A DNA stretch of 64,000 nucleotides, taken from NCBI GenBank assembly GCA_951406725.2, contig OX597817.1, positions 79,546,001 through 79,610,000 on the forward strand, read 5' to 3'. The notes under the pieces were generated by a model. That model made no database searches. It was not told the DNA's origin and was given only the letters and a program-made list of their open reading frames with translations. The position numbers and the translations under genes are program-made. Each line of letters starts with the position of its first letter. Positions within the stretch are counted from its first letter, which is position 1. This document shows, in pieces, positions 454 to 63,400 of this stretch. Origin of the DNA: Octopus vulgaris (taxonomy: Eukaryota).

Positions 454-1022
454 TATGTGTGAGTATTAAAACAAAATTTTATATAGAGTTACCCAAGGTT
501 TCGCACCCACAAAGCAAAGCCATATGGACAGCTCATCATATGGACAATCTAGGGATCTACTTTTTAGAATGTGCTTCTTTCTCATATTTATATATATATA
601 TATAGATAGATAGATAGGTGTAAAAAAGGTTGAATTTAGATTCGTCCTTTAATTTGGAGGTTTCCAAAAAAGATTCCTAATATTGATTCTTCATATTTTG
701 CTGGTAATTTACAGGCGTAAATTTGTGAATATGAAAATAATACTTGTATATGGTGTGTTGTGAATTTACGGACAGAAATCCCATAAAACTTAACAATTTA
801 ACTAAAAATGAAGAAGAGAAGTTGTTAAAATATATATAAGATAATTTTAATATATATATTAATATTTTACAGTAATGAACTGTGTATTCATTTTCATTCT
901 TAAAACTGTTTAGCAGATTTGAACATAAATATGTTAGTCACTTTTGTATTACATCTTTGAAGAATCCCTTCTTCCTATGGACAATGTGGGCTGAGAACAC
1001 AAAATTCAGTATAGAAACAAGT

Positions 1023-1069
1023 CTCTAAGATACAGGCATTTTGACATGACTGTGTCCCTTCAGCTAAAG
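1023..1069 (-). ncRNA. degenerate minimal type-I hammerhead ribozyme
   Basis: Minus strand: CTTTAG CTGAAGG GACA cagtca TGTC AAAAT gcctgt ATC TTAGAG. Stem II is perfect, stem I pairs, and the core is mutated. Confidence 0.55.
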
Positions 1070-1354
1070 CTATTCCTGGATACCAGATCCAAACAGGACA
1101 TGTGGTCTTTGTTTATAGAATTCAGAAAACATATTTACTCATGTATGCTGGTGCCTGCCAAATCAATATTAGGTTATAGTGAGCTTATAAAGCAGTGAGA
1201 ACGAAAAGCAATGATGTAAATATTCATTTTTAGCATCTTCCTGCAGATTTCAATGTGAATATGTTAACCTCTGTTGTATTTCCCTTTTAGACAACAACCT
1301 CGCCCTTCAGAGGATGTGTGCTAACAACACACACAATCCGATGATGAAGGAAAT

Positions 1355-1401
1355 ATTTAAGAGACTAGTGTTTCAACATTATTGTATGTCTTCAGTTGAA
1401 G
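1355..1401 (-). ncRNA. degenerate minimal type-I hammerhead ribozyme
   Basis: Minus strand: CTTCAA CTGAAGA CATA caataa TGTT GAAAC ACTAGT CTC TTAAAT. CUGANGA and GAAA are intact; stems and cleavage triplet have decayed. Confidence 0.55.
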
Positions 1402-2198
1402 TTACCTGAATGTCAATAAGCATGGTAGTTCTTGTTTATAGAATTCAGAAAACAAATTATTTGCTGAAATATGCTGATGTCTGTCAAGTCAATGATAATA
1501 TATTATGAGCATGTACTGCAGTAGAAATCAAAATAATGATGTATATATTCTTTGTTAACACTTGTTGGTAGCAACAATGATTTTTTTTTTTTTTTTACAA
1601 ATACTACTGCTGATAAGAATGGCTTCCATTTCTATGATTTTACATACCTCTTAAGTCACCTGGGTTTCTTCCTGGCGAGATTAATGCAAAATTATGACAA
1701 AAATTTCATTCAACAAATCTTGCTCCAAGCATATGTTCAAACATCCAGACATACATGCATGAATTTACAAACACACACAAAATATCACACCATTATTAAA
1801 TACTCATGTACTGTTTCAGCCTAAGGGTAATGTTCAGCATACAAGTGCCTCGGGTATACTCAGTCGATTATTCTATAATTCAATGCACAGGAAGTACACT
1901 TGATTGAGCAATTACAATACTCAACAATTCATGGATGAAACAACTCACAATACATTAACTAGCACAGCTTTATGATGTGCAGTGAATGCAGTGTTCAAAT
2001 CCTGCAGGCAATGTTACAACTTTTTTTCATCTCCCATGTGACACACACACACACACACACACACATTGTATGTGAGTGTATCATCAACATCAGTATAATT
2101 TAATGTCCATCTTCAATGTATATATGCAAAATATCAACATATATACATACATGTGTACATGTATGTGTGTATTTACACATACGTACATCCATACATAC

Positions 2199-4033: not shown

Positions 4034-4597
4034 AATATATGTGTGTATGCATGTGTGTGTTTGCATGTGTGTGTGTGTGTGTACTTGTGTGTATACATGT
4101 AGTACTGAGTGCTTGATTTTGGGTGGCTTTTTTTTCTACTTGTCTTCTTTCACAACGCTCAGAGTTAAAGAAATGATTTCAACATTCCTTCTTCTATTGT
4201 GTTTGCCTCCTCTTTCATTTCTTTCTATTTCCTTTAGGATTTAGCAGAGATTTCATTTTAGCAAAAACTGCTTAGTATTGAGTTATTGTTGCTGTTCTTG
4301 TTGTGTAGCCCCAAGTTAGCACTAATTGAACAGGTCTATACATAATCAAAATTTTTTTAACCATGACCCTCCTCACTTTTCTTTCTTTTCTCAAGTATTT
4401 GTATGTAACTAAGGCTGCCTTATGCAATATACCCCTTGCTTTTCAAGATGCTAAGGGTTCATTTTGATGAGGTGAGATTGATTGCTATTTTTAGCAAGCT
4501 GAGTGACCATGGATTAGTACATGTATATGTAGCAGTATAATGGCTTCAGGAACTAAAATCAATAGATTACTGACCTGCATGCAGGGAAGTTCATTAT

Positions 4598-5282
4598 GAG
4601 ACCTTTAATGTACAAAATGTAAAAAAAAGTTAACAGATTGAACTACTATGAAAGAAAATATTAAAACTCACTTTTGTTGTTCTTGCATAGTTTCAAACCA
4701 GCTCTGGTTATCAAGCAGTGAAAAGACAATGTTACACACACATACACATATATACATTCATAGCAGTAGTAAATACATATAGTTATAATCTGATAAAGGA
4801 GAAGCAGTTTTCTTGAGACTAACACAACAGTGATTACCATATTTCTGTTCAAACCAGCCAGAAGAAATATGCAATTCATTGGTTCAAATCTTACTCTTTA
4901 CCATGCAAGTGGCGATTTATTGTTCAAATTGAGACCCTTAATTTACAACATGTAACAAAAAAATTAACAGCTAGAAGTGCTCTGAAAGAAAATAGTAAAA
5001 CTCTCTTTTGTTGTACTTGTATAGTTACAGGGATGTAATCAAACCAACTCTGGTTATCAAGCAGTGATAAGACAAACATAAAACTACACACACACATATA
5101 CATTCATAGCAGTAGTGAAAACATACAGCAATAATCTGGTAAAGGTGAAACAGTTTTCTTGAGACTAACACAACACTGATTAGCATATTTCTGTTCAAAT
5201 CAGCCAAAAGTTATTAAGAATAAATATGCAATTCATTGTTTAAAATTTCCTTCTTTACCATGCAAGTGCAATTTATTGTTTC
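4598..5282 (+). repeat. tandem duplication (4598-4925 and 4931-5282) of the same unit family, opposite orientation to 874-1565
   Basis: The two copies share CTCTGGTTATCAAGCAGTG and CAGTTTTCTTGAGACTAACACAAC. The reverse complement GGCTGATTTGAACAGAAATATGCTAATCA matches AGCAGATTTGAACATAAATATGTTAGTCA at ~912. Confidence 0.8.
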
Positions 5283-21569: not shown

Positions 21570-22165
21570 CACACATGGCTATGTGGCTAAGAAACTTGCT
21601 TCTGAACCATGAGGTCTTGAGTTCAGTCCCACTGTGTGATGCCTTGGACAAATGTTATCTATGTTATTTGGTCAGCCCGGGGCTGATCAAATCCTTATGA
21701 GTAGATTTGGCAGACAGTAACTGAAAGAAGCTGAACATGTATATAGACGTAAGAGTGGCTGTGTGGTAAGTAGCTTGCTTATGAACCACATGGTTCTGGG
21801 TTCAGTCCCACTGTGTAGCACCTTGAGCAAGTGTCTTCTACTATAGCCTCTGGCTAACCAAAGCCTTGTGAGTGGATTTGGTAGACAGAAACTGAAAGAA
21901 GCCCGTCATATATATGTATATATGTGTGTGTATGTGTGTGCATATATGTCTGTGTGTTTGTGTTTGTCCCCCCCCCCCAACATCGCTTGATAACCGCTGC
22001 TGGTGTGTTTACGACCCCCGTAACTTAGCAGTTCGGCAAAAGAGACCTATAGAATAAGTACTAGGCTTACAAAGAATAAGTCCTGGGGCCAATTTGCTCG
22101 ACTAAAGGCAGTGCTCCAGCAGGGCCACAGTCAAATAACTGAAACAAGTAAAAGAGTAAAAGAAT
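21570..22165 (+). mobile_element. SINE family B: truncated copy followed by full-length copy
   Basis: tRNA head, CORE-like ACCTTGAGCAAGT, internal (TG)n, and 3' CTGAAACAAGTAAAAGAGTAAAAGA. Confidence 0.85.
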
Positions 22166-24016: not shown

Positions 24017-25033
24017 AAATGTGGTCTATAGTATAAGATGTATAGAGGGAAGATGCAGTAACAAGACAGTAACATACGTAGGGAAACTGCAAGAAGCATT
24101 GGTGAGCGGGTGAATGAACATTGGAGACAACTCAAGGAAGGTAAAAGCTCATCGATTCTGTACCAACACGCCGAACAAGAACACGGGGGATCAATCAATA
24201 ACATAGAGATTAAGATATTGTCCACACATAGAACAGATGCAACAATTAGACAAATTACAGAAGCTACACATATAATAGAAAATAAACCTAGCCTGAATAG
24301 AAAACTAGAATGGAGCAATAGCGCACACCACAACATATGACAATAGTGGATCCTGCAAACATAATAAATACACAGGTAATTAAAGAAATAGAAATGAATA
24401 TCTATATGTATGTATATGTGTATATATATGTATATGTATATGTGTATATGTGTGTGTATATATGTATATATATATATGTATATGTATATGTATGTATATA
24501 TATATATATGTATATGTATATTCTTTTTTTTTTTTTTTCTCGATTAGATTTATTATTATTATTACTAATATTGTTGTTATACATACATACAAGCATATGT
24601 AATGATAATAATGGGTGGATGTAAACACATGAACAAAATTAGAACAAAAGCAACAACAACAAAAACAAAATACAAATTACAAGAATGTATATAACCAGAA
24701 GATACAAATATTACAGACATCCCCCCCCCACACACACACTAAATAAACATAGACGCACATAGAGATATAAGCATGCGCAAATGAAGACATACAATAGAAA
24801 TACAAAATGGCTGACGGTTAGTAAGGAGAGACACAAGTAAGTGAGAAGAAAACAAAGGACCACTGATGCGGTCACAGGAGTGTGACGATAGAACTTTGGC
24901 CGAAATAAGATTAAGATTAATGTAAAAAATAAATATCACTGAAGCAAAATAACACCAAATATATAGTGCGTGTGTTTTTATTGGCTAAACTGGCAATATG
25001 ACCATTCCGAAATATAACAATAATAATAATAAT
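24017..25033 (+). mobile_element. 5'-truncated Penelope-like element (GIY-YIG C-terminus plus 3' region)
   Basis: NVVYSIRC...TYVG, then a frameshift, then [13 protein letters not shown]...[23 protein letters not shown] (24017-24340). Flanked by a 60-bp direct repeat. Confidence 0.85.
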
Positions 25034-28493: not shown

Positions 28494-29579
28494 TGAGGTT
28501 TGATCAATAAGTATCCAGACTGTTGCTATAGTAACGAAGCTAAAGCACGCAAAGTAAAGCCACTATAATCTTTTTCTTTTATTCTTTTATTCGTTTCAGT
28601 CACTTTGACTGCAGCCATGCTGGAGCACCACCTTTGGTCAGCCTGAGGCTATAGTAGAAGACACTTGCCCAAGGTGCCACACAGTGGGATTGAACCAGGA
28701 ACAATGTGGTTGGTTAGCAAGCTACTTACCACACAGCCACTCCTGCACCTTTGTCACTTGGCAAAGATTGACCTTGAACCCTGCTGTGCATGTGCACTAA
28801 GTTTTAATATTCTAGCTCATTTTCACTGTTTACAGCAGTACTTGGAAGGAAGGTGTGTAGCGTGTGATCATCGCATTGACCATGACAGAGAAAGTTGTCA
28901 TGGTGATCCCTGCTCAGAGGCCAGTGCAAAGTTGCAGAAAGTGTATGGAGAGGAGTGCATGAGCCACTCAAGTATACAAGTGGTTCAGATGTTTCAAACA
29001 TGGCCCAAACATGTTGATATTGATGAAAGTTCTGGGAGACCTGCAACCGGCAGAACTGAGAAAAACATCACAGATGTGTGTGCAGTTGTGAGGAGAAATC
29101 ATCGAATCACCAATTGTGAGTTATCAGAGGATGTGCAGATTAGTTACGGTTCAGTTCAGTCTATTATCATTGAAGATTTGTGTATGAGATGCGTGTCTGC
29201 CAAGTTTGTGCTAAAACTGCTTTCAGCTAACCAAAAAGACACTCAGGTTTCAATTGCACAAGATCTCCTTGATTGTGTTCAGAAAGATAAAAACCTTTTG
29301 AAAACTTTGTGTAGGCCTCTGAGAAAGTATTGTCAAAATTCTGGCAAAATTTGATGCTGATTCTCTGCCCAACTTTCTCTGTCATGGTCAATGCGATAAT
29401 CAAATGCTACACACCTTCCTTCCAAGTAATGCCTTAAACAGCAAAAGTAAGCTAGAACATTAAAATTTAGTGTGCATGCACAGCAGAGTTCAAGGTCAGT
29501 CTGTGCTAAGCAGCTTCACTCTGTATGCTTTAGCTTCGTTACTATGGCAACAGCCTGGATACTTATTGATCAGACCACG
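28494..29579 (+). mobile_element. mariner fold-back derivative with long inverted arms; N-terminal transposase remnant
   Basis: TIR TGATCAATAAGTATCCAG at both ends and TA at 29580. ORF remnant KVYGEECMS...SGRP...VSAKFVLKLL (HTH to WVPxxL-like motif). Catalytic domain absent. Confidence 0.9.
28570..28750 (-). mobile_element. internally deleted SINE family B nested in the mariner left arm
   Basis: AGAAGACACTTGCCCAAGGTGCC...CTTACCACACAGCCACTCCTGCACC. Confidence 0.8.
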
Positions 29580-31649: not shown

Positions 31650-32042
31650 GGCACAGAAGTGGCTGTATGGTAAGTAGCTTGCTTACAAACACATGGTTCC
31701 AGGTTCAGTCTGACTGTGTGGCAACTTGGGCGAGTGTCTTCTACTATAGCCTCGGGCCAGCCAAAGCCTTGTGAGTGGATATGGTAGACGGAAACTGAAA
31801 GAAGCCCATCGTATGTACATATATGTGTGTGTGTGTGTTTGAGTGTCTGCGTTTGTCCCCCTGACATCACTTGACAACCAATAGTGGTATGTTTACATCC
31901 CCATAATGTAGCAGTTCAACAAAAGAGACTGATAGAATAAGTACTAGGCTTACAAAGAAGTACTGGGGTTGATTTGCTCAACCAAAGGTGGTGCTCCAGC
32001 ATGGCCACAGTCAAATGACTGAAACAAGTAAAAGAATAAAAG
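31650..32042 (+). mobile_element. SINE family B, full length
   Basis: Colinear with 21745-22165. Confidence 0.9.
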
Positions 32043-35399: not shown

Positions 35400-35613
35400 T
35401 CTTTTCTCTTTTTTCTTTTACCTGTTTCAGTCATTTGACTGCGACCATGCTGAAGCACTGCCTTTAGTTGAATAAATCGACTGCAGGATTTGTTCTTTGT
35501 AAGCTTAGTACTTATTCTATAGGTCTCTTTTGCCGAACCGCTAAGTTACGGGGACGTAAACACATCACCATCAGTTGTTAAGTGATGTTGGGGGGACAAA
35601 CACAGACACACAA

Positions 35614-35682
<69 letters not shown>

Positions 35683-36035: not shown

Positions 36036-36643
36036 GTAATGAATAAAACAAGAATTTAACATACTATTTCTCTTAATCTGGCAGGCAGGATACACTTAAT
36101 AATGAACTGATATGAATGTTGGTCAGAAATTTTTCTTGAAATTATCAGTCTATCACTCAAGCCAGATAAAAATCTTAAAATGTTATTTCTACTTTATCAT
36201 ACAACAAACACATCACAATTTGTAAGTCTACATAAAGATCAATAAGATGGTAACTCTTAGATGATGTTAGTAATTAATAGTGTTGGTGGTAAACGATGAT
36301 ATTTTTCTGAGAGATTGCCAATAAAATAAAACACAAACACATATATATATATATGAACAAATAGAATAAAATAAAATGAAGATACTTTTTGAAGAGAGAA
36401 ATATCTGCCGATCTGTAAGCAGGAAGGTGTAGAAAAGTTTTACACAAGACATTAAATGGGGAGTGGATAAGGATAGTGACTTTTAGCGTATTTGCCTGCA
36501 ATGGATCTATCTTATAAGGGATTAGACTTAGTGGAATTGGCAAACCACATGTGAATTAAAGGTTTTGGTTCTTTGCAAAATCCCTTAGATTTGACTGAGT
36601 CAGTGGATTATTTATTAACAAGAGTGTTACCTATCATAGGATA

Positions 36644-37045
36644 CTCTTTTACTCTTTTACTTGTTTCAGTCATTTGACTGTGGCCATGCTGGAGCATAGC
36701 CTTTAGTCAAGCAAATCGACCCCAGGACTTATTTTTGAAAGCCTAGTACTTATTCTATCAGTCTCTTTTGCTAAACCGCTAAGTTATGGGGACGTAAATA
36801 CACCAGTATCGGTTGTCAAGCAATGTTGGGGGGACAAGCACAAACACACAAACATACATATACACACATATACATATATACATATATACGACAGGCTTCT
36901 TTCAGTTTCTGTCTACCAAATCCACTCACAAGGCTTTGGTTGGCCCAAGACTATAGCAGAAGACACTTGCCCAAGGTGCCATACAGTTGGACTGAACCCG
37001 GAACCATGTGGTTGGTAAGCAAGCTACTTACCATACAGCCACTCG
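36644..37045 (-). mobile_element. SINE family B, full length
   Basis: Reverse complement of the family B consensus. Confidence 0.9.
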
Positions 37046-38264
37046 GTAATATCAGAGAATATGACGGTTTTAGTTTATTTATTCAAGCTTGACCAAACAA
37101 GTATACTATTTGTTGTTCTTGTTTATAAAAACTGTTATTCTTATAGGGCTGTGAAGAAAGAATCCTATATTTTTAACTGACAATGTGCAATGATATAGAA
37201 ATGCATACATCCTACAATCTGATGATGTCATTTATTGTCCAATATGTTTTCACACACATTTTCTATAAGATGAATTTCTCCTAAGAATATTTCAGCAGCA
37301 AAGAGTCTTCCCATGCCCATGTGTACACAAACATGTTAGATGTGATTTTTATAATATAACTTTTATTAAATGTCTTGGTGTGTATTCAAAATGATGAAAT
37401 GAATTCTAATTTTTAAGTTAAAAAGTTTAAAATTTCTTATTTGTGTATTTGCGATAAATATTTGGCCATATTTTTGTAGATTTAATCAAGATAATTACAA
37501 TTCACTCTACTGAAAACGTAATCACAACAAAATTTCGTTATAAAATACAAATTTTTCAGAAAGTTATATAGACCTGTACTCTGTATTTCTTTCTTTTTAT
37601 ATATCTGTCTCCCATTATCTCAATATGATGTAAAGTGTGAATGGAAAAATCAGCTAATTAACGTTTACATTGGCTATTATTATATAGAGTTTGCTTGTTT
37701 GTTTGGAATAAACTCAGATAAATATTATTTATGTAAAATGAAAGAAAATACAGCACCATAACTACCCCAACTCTAACCATCGGCACCACCACCACCACTA
37801 CCAAAATAGAAAGACAATTCCAAATTCAAATTCTGTATGATTTGCTATTGGAGTTTAGTACCATATTCTTGGCATATATATTCAATGACACAATTTCAAT
37901 TCCTAGTCTGGAATATCTTGAAATAATGAAAAATACCCCTTGTGCATGATTTTGTATAGAAATGAATATATTTATATTTTACCTCAACCTAGATCGATCA
38001 AGGCTTTGAACACAAATAGAAACATTTTTTGTTGTTCTTACTAGGTGGTGAGCTGGCAGAATTGTTAGCATGCCAGTCGAAATGCTGCTAAGCATTTTTC
38101 CTGTCTTTATGTTCCGAGTTCAAATTGTGCTGAAGTCGACTTTGCTTTCCATCCTTTCAAGGTCGAGAAAATAAGTACCAGTTGAACACCAGGTTTGACA
38201 TAAGTGACTATCCCCCTCACCCAAATTTCACGCATTGTTCTTATAGTAAAAAAGATTATTATTC

Positions 38265-42199: not shown

Positions 42200-43230
42200 C
42201 AGGTGTTGGACAAAATAATGGAAACACCTTACAGTTTCAAAGAAATATATTTTAATATGGGGTAGGACCACTTTTGGCAGTAATTACAGCTTGAATTCTA
42301 TAAGGAATGGACTCGTACAGAGTTTGAATGTTTTCCAAAGGAATTTTTGTCCATTTTCCACTTCTTGTAGTCATGATGGTGGAGGATGTCAACTCTTTAC
42401 TTGCTTTTCTAAAATGTTCAATAATGAGATCTGGGGACTCCGGTCGTCAGATAAGATGTACAACTTCACTAGAATGTTCCTCGTGCCACTCACTAACAAA
42501 TTTAGCTATGTGAATTGGTGCATTATCATCCTGAAAGATTGCATTTCCCTCCGGAAACAGTTCTGCAAACACAGGATGAAATTGATCAGATAAAATGCTT
42601 AGCCTTGGCTTTTAATTCTGCCATGAAGGGAAACCACTGAGCCTGCGGATTTCCAAGATATACCCCCACCCCCAGATCAGCACAGATCCTCCTCCATATT
42701 TAGCAGTTGAAAGAAGGCAATCTAGGTCAAATGCTTCTTATGGCTGTCTCCTCACATATACTCGCCCGTGGTTGGAAAGAAGGTAAATAATGGCTCGTCC
42801 GAGAAAATAATATTCTTCCACTGTTCTCGGGACCAATTCTGTAGGTTTTTACTCCACTCTAAATGTTTTGCAACGTTTGTTTTTGAAAGTAGTGGTTTTT
42901 TATTGCAGCCCTCCCATGAAATCCGGCTTTGTGCAGCTCCTGGCAAACAGTTTTTGTGGAAAATTGGTTCTTGAGGTGGTCTTTAAGCTCTGCCGTAATT
43001 TTGGGAGCTGTACTTTTGTAATCCTTTCTAACAATTCGCGTAAACGTCTGTATCTGAAAATTTTGCTTTTCTTCAGGAATTTTGTATCAACGAGGAGGTT
43101 TTTCCCTCTTTCTCAAAGGCTGTCATTACTTTCGAGACAGTACTTCTTAATACACCACACATTTCAGCTGTTTTTGTTATGCTAGCGCCTGCCATGCGAG
43201 CACCAACAATTTGACCTCTTTGAATGTCGG
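42200..43230 (-). mobile_element. Tc1-family transposon (decayed transposase plus 3' TIR)
   Basis: QRGQIVGARMAGAS..., KKPLLSK...WKNIIFSDE, C-terminal AVITAKSGPTPY*, and TIR CAGGTGTTGGACAAAATAATGGAAACACC. Confidence 0.9.
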
Positions 43231-50271: not shown

Positions 50272-50969
50272 ATCAAACTGTGCAACATGTCCAAACCTGC
50301 TAGAAGGATCAGAATTCCTCTTCAAAGAGGGACAGAAATTCAAGATCAAATCTAACTTTACTTGTGCCTCTGAAAACATAATTTATGTCATAAAATGCTC
50401 GGGCTGCCACCAAGACTACGTGGGATCCACGGGACTATCACTCAGACGTAGATGCACACTGCATCGAGAACAGATTGCATTCCCAGAATACAGAATTATA
50501 CCTTTTAGTGAGCACATTGAGAAATGCGCAAAGCAACTACTACCACAATTTTTAATCTTTCCATTTTACTAATGTGCTATCGGATCATCAACACAAATTA
50601 GACTAAACAAGGAAACATTCTTCATTGAAAAGTACAAGCCCAGACTTAACCATTCCAACATACTGATACAGAGAAATTCACACCAAGGGAAAGGCAAAAA
50701 ATTTTAAGCGATTATCTCCCTTACACCGGAAGAAATCACTCATTACCTCCCCTTATTTAGAACTCTTTTAAACATAAACATAACGATAACTCTGTTCAAC
50801 ATAAACATAACGATGTAAGAAATTTGAAAAGCTAAACGCGAAACCGGTCTTTCTTCTAAATTATGTCATTGTAAGAAAAAAATTTTTAATATTCTTCAGA
50901 CATATTGACTCAAATATATATTTCTTAACCTTTAAGCCTTCTGTAGTGTTTTCACTTTTTACTATTTTC

Positions 50970-50970
<1 letters not shown>
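50272..50970 (+). mobile_element. 5'-truncated Penelope-like element (Cys-linker plus GIY-YIG; Neptune/Naiad-like) in (TA)n
   Basis: CATC...FTCASENIIYVIKCSGC..YVGST...H...RLNKETFFIEKYKPRLN with one stop codon. The 3' region has CGAAACCGGTC, a hammerhead 3' half. Confidence 0.9.
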
Positions 50971-51003
<33 letters not shown>

Positions 51004-52169: not shown

Positions 52170-52550
52170 CTTCTTCTTTCACCCTTTAATTGTGTCAGTC
52201 ATTGGACTGCGGCCATGCTGGGACACAGCCTTGAAGAAATTTTAGTCGAAAGAATCGAACCCAGTATTTACATTTTGTTAAGCCTGCTACTTATTCTATC
52301 AGTCTCTTTTGCCAAACAACTAAGTTATGGGGACGAAAACACACTAACACCGGTTATCAAGCGTTACTGGTGGATTACCCCCCCCCCACATACACAACGC
52401 ATATATATATACATATATATATATATATACGACGGGCTTCTTGGCCAGCTTGAGGCTATAGTAGAAGACACTTCCCGAAGGTGCAATACAGTGAGACTGA
52501 ACTCAACCATGCGGTTTGGAAGCAAGCTTCTTCCCACACGGCCACGTCTG
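52170..52550 (-). mobile_element. SINE family B
   Basis: Family B motifs on the minus strand. Confidence 0.8.
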
Positions 52551-62789: not shown

Positions 62790-63400
62790 GTGTCTAGCAT
62801 GAACTGAATGCAGTTTGCAGTAAATGTTAAGCCTTCAAAAATCATTATCTGCAATATTTACAGCGAAGATCTGAAACGATCCTAAGTACATTCTGACAAA
62901 TTTCAATGCAGTATGTTAATCGCTGTTGTGTACGTCACAGAAGAACAACTCCTTTCTCTTAAGACGTCAATGTATTCATAACACACTCGGATTATTGGCG
63001 CAAGAGATTTTGGGACATCAGTGTTTCGACATCTGGTATCTCATTAGTCAGAATTATCCGGATCCCTTTAAGCCGAAACAAACCACTGGTTCTGCTTAGA
63101 ATTTTAGTGAATAAATGGTTTTCTGATCAATGCTAATATCTGCCAATCGATTAAAAATCATTATTTTCGCTGTATATAGCAAGATCTGAAACAAACACAT
63201 GACACATAGATCGAAAACGAACATATTGTCGAGGTAAAAGGGAGAAGTTGTTCTGTGACTTATACAACAATGACTAGCATATTTACATTAGAGAGTCTAT
63301 AGGAACGTATTAAAAATAAATATGCCAATCATCGTTTCAACAGAACAACGACGTAAGCAAGAAAATAATTCTAGAGATTTTTTTCTTTTTTGGCAGCAAT
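62790..63400. repeat. third locus of the retrozyme-like unit: ~1.2 tandem copies plus an inverted partial copy (63230-63400)
   Basis: AAAAATCATTAT...AAGATCTGAAAC at ~62837 and ~63153. AATTTCAATGCAGTATGTTAATCGCTGTTGT matches GATTTCAATGTGAATATGTTAACCTCTGTTGT at ~1246. Confidence 0.7.
63007..63054 (-). ncRNA. degenerate minimal type-I hammerhead ribozyme (best-preserved copy)
   Basis: Minus strand: ATTCTGA CTAATGA GATA ccaga TGTC GAAAC ACTGAT GTC CCAAAAT. One core change (G to A); GUC triplet intact; stem I partly mismatched. Confidence 0.6.

Follow-up and report, generated by a model that had tools for sequence, protein, structure and literature searches.

A decayed tandem repeat of about 330 bases with an ancestral type-I hammerhead motif in Octopus vulgaris, probably an extinct retrozyme family

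The window analysed here is a stretch of 64,000 nucleotides from contig OX597817.1 of the Octopus vulgaris genome. It contains a dispersed, multi-copy repeat at four loci, designated A to D (Table 1). The units have a GC content of 31–35% and a period of 315–333 bases, within the retrozyme range of 150–450 bases. At locus A, the 5' unit (A2) and the 3' unit (A1) lie head-to-tail in the minus sense, with 222 of 328 aligned columns identical (68%; z 36 against 100 dinucleotide shuffles) and a period of 326–332, confirming the head-to-tail unit of ~325–336 bases that a preliminary description of this DNA had placed at 874–1565. Since A2 starts ~35 bases before position P, the point at which A1 ends, the insert corresponds to two units with a short terminal redundancy, and another unit therefore sits 5' of a unit. 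The dimer is not an assembly slip, since one contig of run X2, a run that is perhaps the source of the assembly, spans 765–1567 with 0 differences; contig cover falls at 1566, and reads are also cut by the tool at the poly-T beyond. Tandem Repeats Finder gave no ~330-base period among the rows listed (150 of 174, the others lying beyond 56.5 kb), as expected given the divergence of the units. A separate high-copy repeat at 760–836 abuts the left side of locus A, with a summed contig depth of ~11,000 compared with 51 for single-copy sequence in X2, and is present in run X23 too. Further to the right, a long imperfect inverted duplication rich in microsatellites was noted by eye at 2144–2660, ~2165–2460 being mirrored at 2480–2660.

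Table 1 Positions of the repeat units, hammerhead motifs and the Penelope-like element in the window
Feature	Position	Strand	Remarks
A1, 3' unit of dimer	873–1231	-	3' end at ~873 (position P), followed by AT-rich flank
A2, 5' unit of dimer	1232–1567	-	starts ~35 bases ahead of position P
A1 hammerhead, decayed type-I	1023–1069	-	10/12 core letters; cut site after 1029
A1 hammerhead parts			stem I 1069–1064/1028–1023; core 1063–1057; stem II 1056–1053/1046–1043
A2 hammerhead, decayed type-I	1355–1401	-	12/12 core letters; stems damaged; stem III palindromic
Dimer B	4590–5280	+	288/359 identical (80%); period 333
Fourth copy D	37127–37290	+	hammerhead at 37171–37217
Penelope-like element, young, 5'-truncated	50273–50975	+	linker cysteine motif, GIY-YIG end, 3' repeat; lies in TA microsatellite
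C main arm	62837–63192	-	one unit (~315) plus 41-base repeat of its own start, tail-like
C hammerhead, decayed type-I	63008–63053	-	11/12 core letters; GUC intact; cut site after 63014
Cp, inverted 5'-truncated arm	63190–63340	+	head-to-head with C main arm; ends near P; no hammerhead

Locus C is homologous along the unit to both A2 (178/287 identical, z 15.2) and A1 (181/304, z 6.7). The preliminary description had listed it as a tandem at 62790–63400; the homology stands, but the locus consists of one unit with a 41-base extension that adjoins an inverted arm. In essence, both C and D are monomeric. The downstream flank of D resembles A1 (z 7.2), with z of 2.1 for A2 and 0.3 for C, and a possible inverted arm at 37093–37131 scored within the shuffled maximum and was left out of the counts. 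No target-site duplication was evident by eye at A, B or C.

Locus B, described earlier as the same tandem at 4598–5282, is indeed a dimer, but it matches the A unit over just ~90–110 bases downstream of the hammerhead, the 3' part of the unit, and lacks the hammerhead itself. Identity is 68/89 between B2 and A1, with z of 2.1 for A2–B1 and 1.0 for A2–B2. B has the 3' ~110 bases of the family together with a ~40-base extension, and none of 22 descriptor sites or 14 covariance-model matches gave a hammerhead-like site in B. Its middle resembles a common dispersed repeat at 36760–36880, a piece of which stands in the place of the hammerhead. As B is a dimer of like period without a hammerhead, dimers need not stem from a ribozyme. 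Copies of the common SINE-like dispersed repeat were observed at 36640–37045 and near 21940–22050, 31820–31930, 35520–35640 and 52300–52420, with one copy directly left of D; this repeat is putatively an octopus SINE.

For reconstruction of the hammerhead, A2, A1 and C were aligned using MAFFT blind to the motif, and a 2-of-3 majority was taken. All 12 core letters stand in type-I order in this majority; stem I has 5 pairs, stem II has 4, and a stem III is present. It scores 35 with our own descriptor, compared with 24.2 ± 1.4 (maximum 28) for 400 column shuffles, none of which scored as high. The claim of a hammerhead at the same position in three copies was thereby upheld. The stem II consensus given earlier, GACA/TGTC, was right on its TGTC side; the majority stem II is GAUA/UGUC, and two G's of the full consensus given earlier are letters occurring in one copy of three. 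No other descriptor site of the window scores as high as the A1 hammerhead (33); 21 others lie at 29–31. As stated before, the GUC cleavage triplet is kept in one of these three copies, C, being AUC in A1 and CUC in A2. The further statement that several of the disabling changes are CpG-type found little agreement, such changes accounting for just 3 of 23 departures from the majority, one of them uncertain.

The motif consists of a 4-pair helix II straight after the core, a 6-base loop 2, a helix III of 3–4 pairs and a helix I of 5–6 pairs. These helix I and helix II dimensions are those of the 'canonical' rather than the 'minimal' class described in PMC4209133, and helix III is longer than the 1–2 pairs given there for the hammerheads of Penelope pseudo-LTRs. 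The motif, introduced in the preliminary description as 'minimal', is better called canonical-like.

A covariance model was built from A2, A1 and C, with D held out. It found D at 37170–37220 (+) with 34.8 bits and E 6e-6, the next match being a TA-rich stretch with 20.6 bits. This fourth copy, absent from the preliminary description, carries 11 of 12 core letters with identical spacing and 11 of 14 pairs, and is without G8 and the G10.1–C11.1 pair; the hammerhead occupies one common unit position in A2, A1, C and D. In the three copies 35 of 42 stem cells pair, compared with 24–50% for slid partners, the structure having been derived from these same sequences; with D added, pairing extends to 46 of 56 stem cells, and 5 pairs show changes at both partners. 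The covariation score was reached by 146 of 500 shuffles for three copies and by 5 of 500 for four, a value within the range that relatedness alone can give. Nine of the 12 core columns are invariant in the three copies, compared with 117 of 273 columns overall (P 0.025), a figure biased by the motif being the reason these copies were noticed. An ATG in loop 2/stem II is also invariant in these copies.

Other tests gave no signal in the decayed copies. Rfam yielded no hammerhead among the matches listed for A (7 and 2) or C (1), or among the 150 of 559 listed for the whole window, all of them microsatellite-driven. The hammerhead regions fold no better than shuffles (z +0.45 to -0.78), nor do three whole decayed units (z -1.0, +1.8 and -0.4), whose fold signal would be erased by decay. 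The minimum-energy fold of the majority sequence is not the hammerhead, and folding of the four copies and the majority did not give a consistent distal helix I. The aligned sequences give good support for one type-I hammerhead motif in the ancestral unit, with none of the four window copies intact.

The stretch was found in 20 of 24 listed runs, with shares from 1.00 down to 0.05 and seven organism codes, small shares counting only where contigs were aligned, and the contigs of four runs were aligned to 760–1660 at 80% likeness. Orthologous contigs were recovered from X12 (organism E; 820–1462, 53 differences) and X11 (organism F; 976–1567, 35 differences). Judged from the rows listed, which hold 40 of the 85 differences, at least seven orthologue substitutions lie within the two hammerheads, four of which go to the family majority or restore GUC and one of which matches C. 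Specifically, substitutions at 1025, 1038 and 1050 bring A1 to the family majority, the GUC of A2 is restored at 1363 in both orthologues (E and F) and in one paralogous X2 contig, and the substitution at 1359 matches C yet leaves a mismatch in A2. As counter-evidence, both orthologues turn the A1 core C3 into U (1063), X11 departs from the majority at 1356, X12 carries a 2-base insertion in loop 2, and the substitution at 1038 breaks a local pair in A1. The A1–A2 distance is 0.44, whereas the orthologues in organisms E and F lie at 0.088 and 0.062; if A1 and A2 were identical at insertion, the insert would be some five to seven times older than the E and F splits.

The contigs aligned in three DNA-type runs number 333, 371 and 233, partly on the neighbouring repeat at 760–836. 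At position 1430 alone, 65 (X2), 55 (X12) and 38 (X11) loose contig ends were counted, which are lower bounds per run for distinct contigs carrying the unit; the loose ends agree at just ~0.54, and the aligned copies are therefore diverse. Among the joints of paralogous contigs, those in which the alignment goes back, indicating tandem copies, occur in X2 and X12; opposite-strand joints were seen in these two runs and in X11, along with collinear skips across the hammerhead region. At 80% likeness the paralogous contigs stop short of the hammerhead, and the loose-end consensus ends ~10 bases before stem I. Run X23, guessed to be RNA, gave 8 contigs, mostly on the neighbouring repeat, with at least one on the unit at 1428–1487, which speaks neither for nor against expression. 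Exact-pattern scans for further copies returned 0, 0 and 0 matches in viral, 0 and 0 in metagenome and 0 and 1 in prokaryote sequences. The single prokaryote match, L001, is a bacterial contig of high GC content that bears no relation to the unit, and was rejected as a copy. The site at 797–841 (-) of this Planctomycetaceae contig is hammerhead-like: its core is full and stems II and III are good, but no stem I adjoins.

The ends of the copies were compared by aligning them to the unit. A and Cp stop near P, 137–156 bases past the cut site, and the C main arm and B stop ~40 bases beyond P; the four ends are decayed and their positions were judged by eye, with a gap of ~21 bases in C immediately ahead of P. 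Penelope-like insertions can carry an inverted 5'-truncated copy and a 30–40-base tail on one end (10.1101/2021.04.23.441226), the tail reflecting two reverse-transcription start sites and being termed unique to these elements (PMC11167929). The loci resemble Penelope-like elements, as described in PMC4209133 and these two sources, in opposite-strand pairs 100–700 bases apart, and apparently also in an inverted 5'-truncated arm and a tail of that length. Since it comes from so few decayed ends, the signature of tail and inversion is a lead, not proof, for Penelope-type insertion.

The Penelope-like remnants of the preliminary description were recovered as the element at 50273–50975, but the 3' repeat of this element is unrelated to the unit. 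Over 135 residues the element has 94% protein identity to P0001, and it contains one stop and an internal duplication of 27 bases, and resembles a protein that has both a reverse transcriptase and, at its C terminus, a GIY-YIG domain. Its linker cysteine motif fits the definition of the Neptune type, and its named animal relatives are from oysters, with 44–45% identity. A search of the window with Penelope proteins and a profile matched only 50273–50677 and, weakly, 24083–24304. The element is unlinked to the unit, and shows that Penelope machinery exists in the genome. Its 3' repeat (50640–50975) was considered as the parent of the unit and rejected, the two being unrelated with z at most 1.3.

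This 3' repeat has a minimal hammerhead-like motif of its own at 50817–50855 (+), identified by eye and without an Rfam match, with a stem I of 6 pairs plus one extra T, a stem II of 2 pairs and a CCGG palindrome before UC; its core carries the U3–A8 swap described in PMC4209133. The weak match at 24083–24304 (+) is a second GIY-YIG-like remnant (E 0.005, 2 of 122 queries, no Pfam match) lying between AAT and TA repeats. DNA-transposon remnants were observed at 28920–29351 (+), a mariner-like frame with three relatives at 43–60%, and at 42862–43086 (-), a Tc3-type helix-turn-helix (E 2.6e-7). Pfam analysis of 65 of the 113 longer stop-free stretches revealed no host exon, the rest being frames of simple or common repeats or already scanned.

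At none of loci A–D did the 122 Penelope-type proteins or the profile give a coding match, in a search with Neptune-type proteins and Pfam that old remnants could escape. None of the 78 stop-free stretches around A–D matched a reverse transcriptase or GIY-YIG domain. The frames behind the stem II ATG contain 2–5 stops and have no significant match to 81 N-termini, and a frame with reverse transcriptase and GIY-YIG domains lies beside the unit at 0 of 4 loci. The repeat is an old and long-dead family, with a tandem unit, many genomic copies, tandem and inverted joints, and no adjoining coding sequence.

Several features of the family agree with the metazoan non-LTR retrozymes described in PMC7229834, which are non-coding tandem units of 150–450 bases with a GC content under 45–50%, carry one type-I hammerhead per unit, occur as dimers to multimers without LTR, PBS or PPT, and co-exist with Penelope-like elements; the mussel units have 350–390 bases. 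In coral, mussel and axolotl, retrozyme repeats undergo self-cleavage and build up as circles (PMC7229834). In contrast to these, every copy seen here is dead and old. The inverted arms and tail-like ends are not among the retrozyme features described in the parts of PMC7229834 compared here, and octopus or cephalopod is mentioned 0 times in its main text. The enzyme that moves animal retrozymes is still treated as a hypothesis in its discussion. In cephalopods, 235 Rfam Hammerhead_1 loci have been annotated in the giant squid genome (PMC6962438), the passages compared describing no family, unit or tandem structure for them.

A recent study of vertebrate Penelope-derived retrozymes (Li, Clavereau and Pollet 2026, 10.64898/2026.07.22.740005) likewise reports monomers, dimers and multimers. 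It proposes kinship to Penelope pseudo-LTRs, including a Xenopus case, and found that one of nine tested dimers cleaved. Unlike in that case, no parent pseudo-LTR has been identified for the 330-base unit. As set out there, the survey covered 35 genomes (31 vertebrate, 3 insect and 1 coral) and no mollusc, and its pipeline requires two intact hammerheads, so that a fossil family like the present one would escape it. That study defines an active element as two consecutive units with intact hammerheads; none of the 4 window copies has an intact motif. In a literature search to which Dfam, Repbase and several supplements were external, no description of the 330-base family was found. The class is already known from mussel, coral, axolotl and Xenopus, and the family would be an addition to it, grouping there on its testable structural features.

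Taken together, we consider it probable that this decayed, dispersed, non-coding repeat of 315–335 bases is an extinct non-LTR retrozyme, and that a Penelope-like enzyme moved it in trans. The preliminary description had already proposed a retrozyme, and this is still the best reading, now supported by the orthologues and the held-out copy D, although B proved to be only a partial relative. The unit may have arisen by loss of the reading frame from a Penelope terminal repeat, an origin from a pseudo-LTR having been proposed for Xenopus. A multimeric transcript would have cleaved itself at one site in each unit. By analogy, the ancestral motif presumably cleaved, and its palindromic helix III would probably have favoured the dimer: dimeric cleavage is the more effective mode for type-I hammerheads whose helix III is short and palindromic (PMC4209133; PMC6155905), as established for newt and viroid hammerheads. 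A Penelope-like reverse transcriptase/endonuclease, acting in trans, would then probably have returned copies of multimers or circles to the genome. Reverse transcription would have begun at two fixed sites, ~140–155 and ~180–195 bases downstream of the cut site, which would give ends with and without the ~40-base tail.

A retrozyme and a solo Penelope terminal repeat are not fully separable on four loci. The unit could itself be a pseudo-LTR belonging to an autonomous Penelope-like element now extinct, its copies being 5'-truncated insertions or partial tandems with no separate non-autonomous family. Hammerheads are conserved in Penelope pseudo-LTRs, some with a small palindromic helix III (PMC4209133), and like the present motif they are type-I, with the palindromic helix expected to make them act as dimers (PMC4209133; 10.1101/2021.04.23.441226; PMC11167929). 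The inverted arm and tail are features of autonomous elements (10.1101/2021.04.23.441226). The reading frame of the anole element opens at stem II, with reverse transcription initiated ~110 bases into that frame (PMC11167929), and the invariant ATG of three copies here lies in loop 2/stem II. However, what lies 5' of a unit at locus A is another unit, twice over, and no reading frame adjoins the unit as in Penelope pseudo-LTRs, a coding match being present at none of the four loci. Penelope minimal hammerheads typically have 7–8 pairs and an unpaired 5' base in helix II, which are absent here, and the window's only clear Penelope 3' end shows no relation to the unit. On this balance we regard a pseudo-LTR without a separate family as unlikely.

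Less likely again is spread of single units in the manner of a SINE, with dimers formed by later local DNA duplication and hence uninformative on multimeric or circular RNA. It would account for B, the younger dimer of similar period without a hammerhead, for the monomeric state of C and D, and for the lack of an evident target-site duplication at A, B and C. Against it, the duplicated span of locus A is the family unit and excludes flanking DNA, the 41-base extension of C and the 35-base lead-in of A are unit-to-unit junctions at independent loci, and joints that go back are found in paralogous contigs of two organisms. A hammerhead likeness arising by chance, from the alignment of a small number of decayed, AT-rich copies of an ordinary repeat, would fit the lack of an Rfam match or folding signal and the 21 loose descriptor sites besides A1, but is very improbable given the shuffling result, the same spacing in held-out D and the GUC restored in orthologues.

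Under the retrozyme reading, B stands apart: it combines the period and 3' module of the family with a middle like the dispersed repeat, and has no hammerhead. In the anole study, insertion in vitro was independent of hammerhead cleavage (PMC11167929), so a hammerhead-less derivative such as B would be allowed. More speculative, and in our judgement somewhat doubtful, is the idea that a unit with a Penelope-unique insertion signature and a ribozyme-less sister, B, together constitute direct genomic evidence that Penelope machinery inserts retrozymes by recognising a 3' module and can do without the hammerhead, in what would be the first described retrozyme family of its lineage (probably cephalopod), kept at orthologous sites across several species.

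Since the class is known, including in a mollusc, the 330-base family itself mainly extends its distribution map. Extinct ribozyme families that are invisible to Rfam and to pipelines requiring intact motifs are recoverable from decayed copies combined with orthologues. The main value of the family is mechanistic, in that its tail and inversion signatures bear on the mobilisation of retrozymes by Penelope-like elements.
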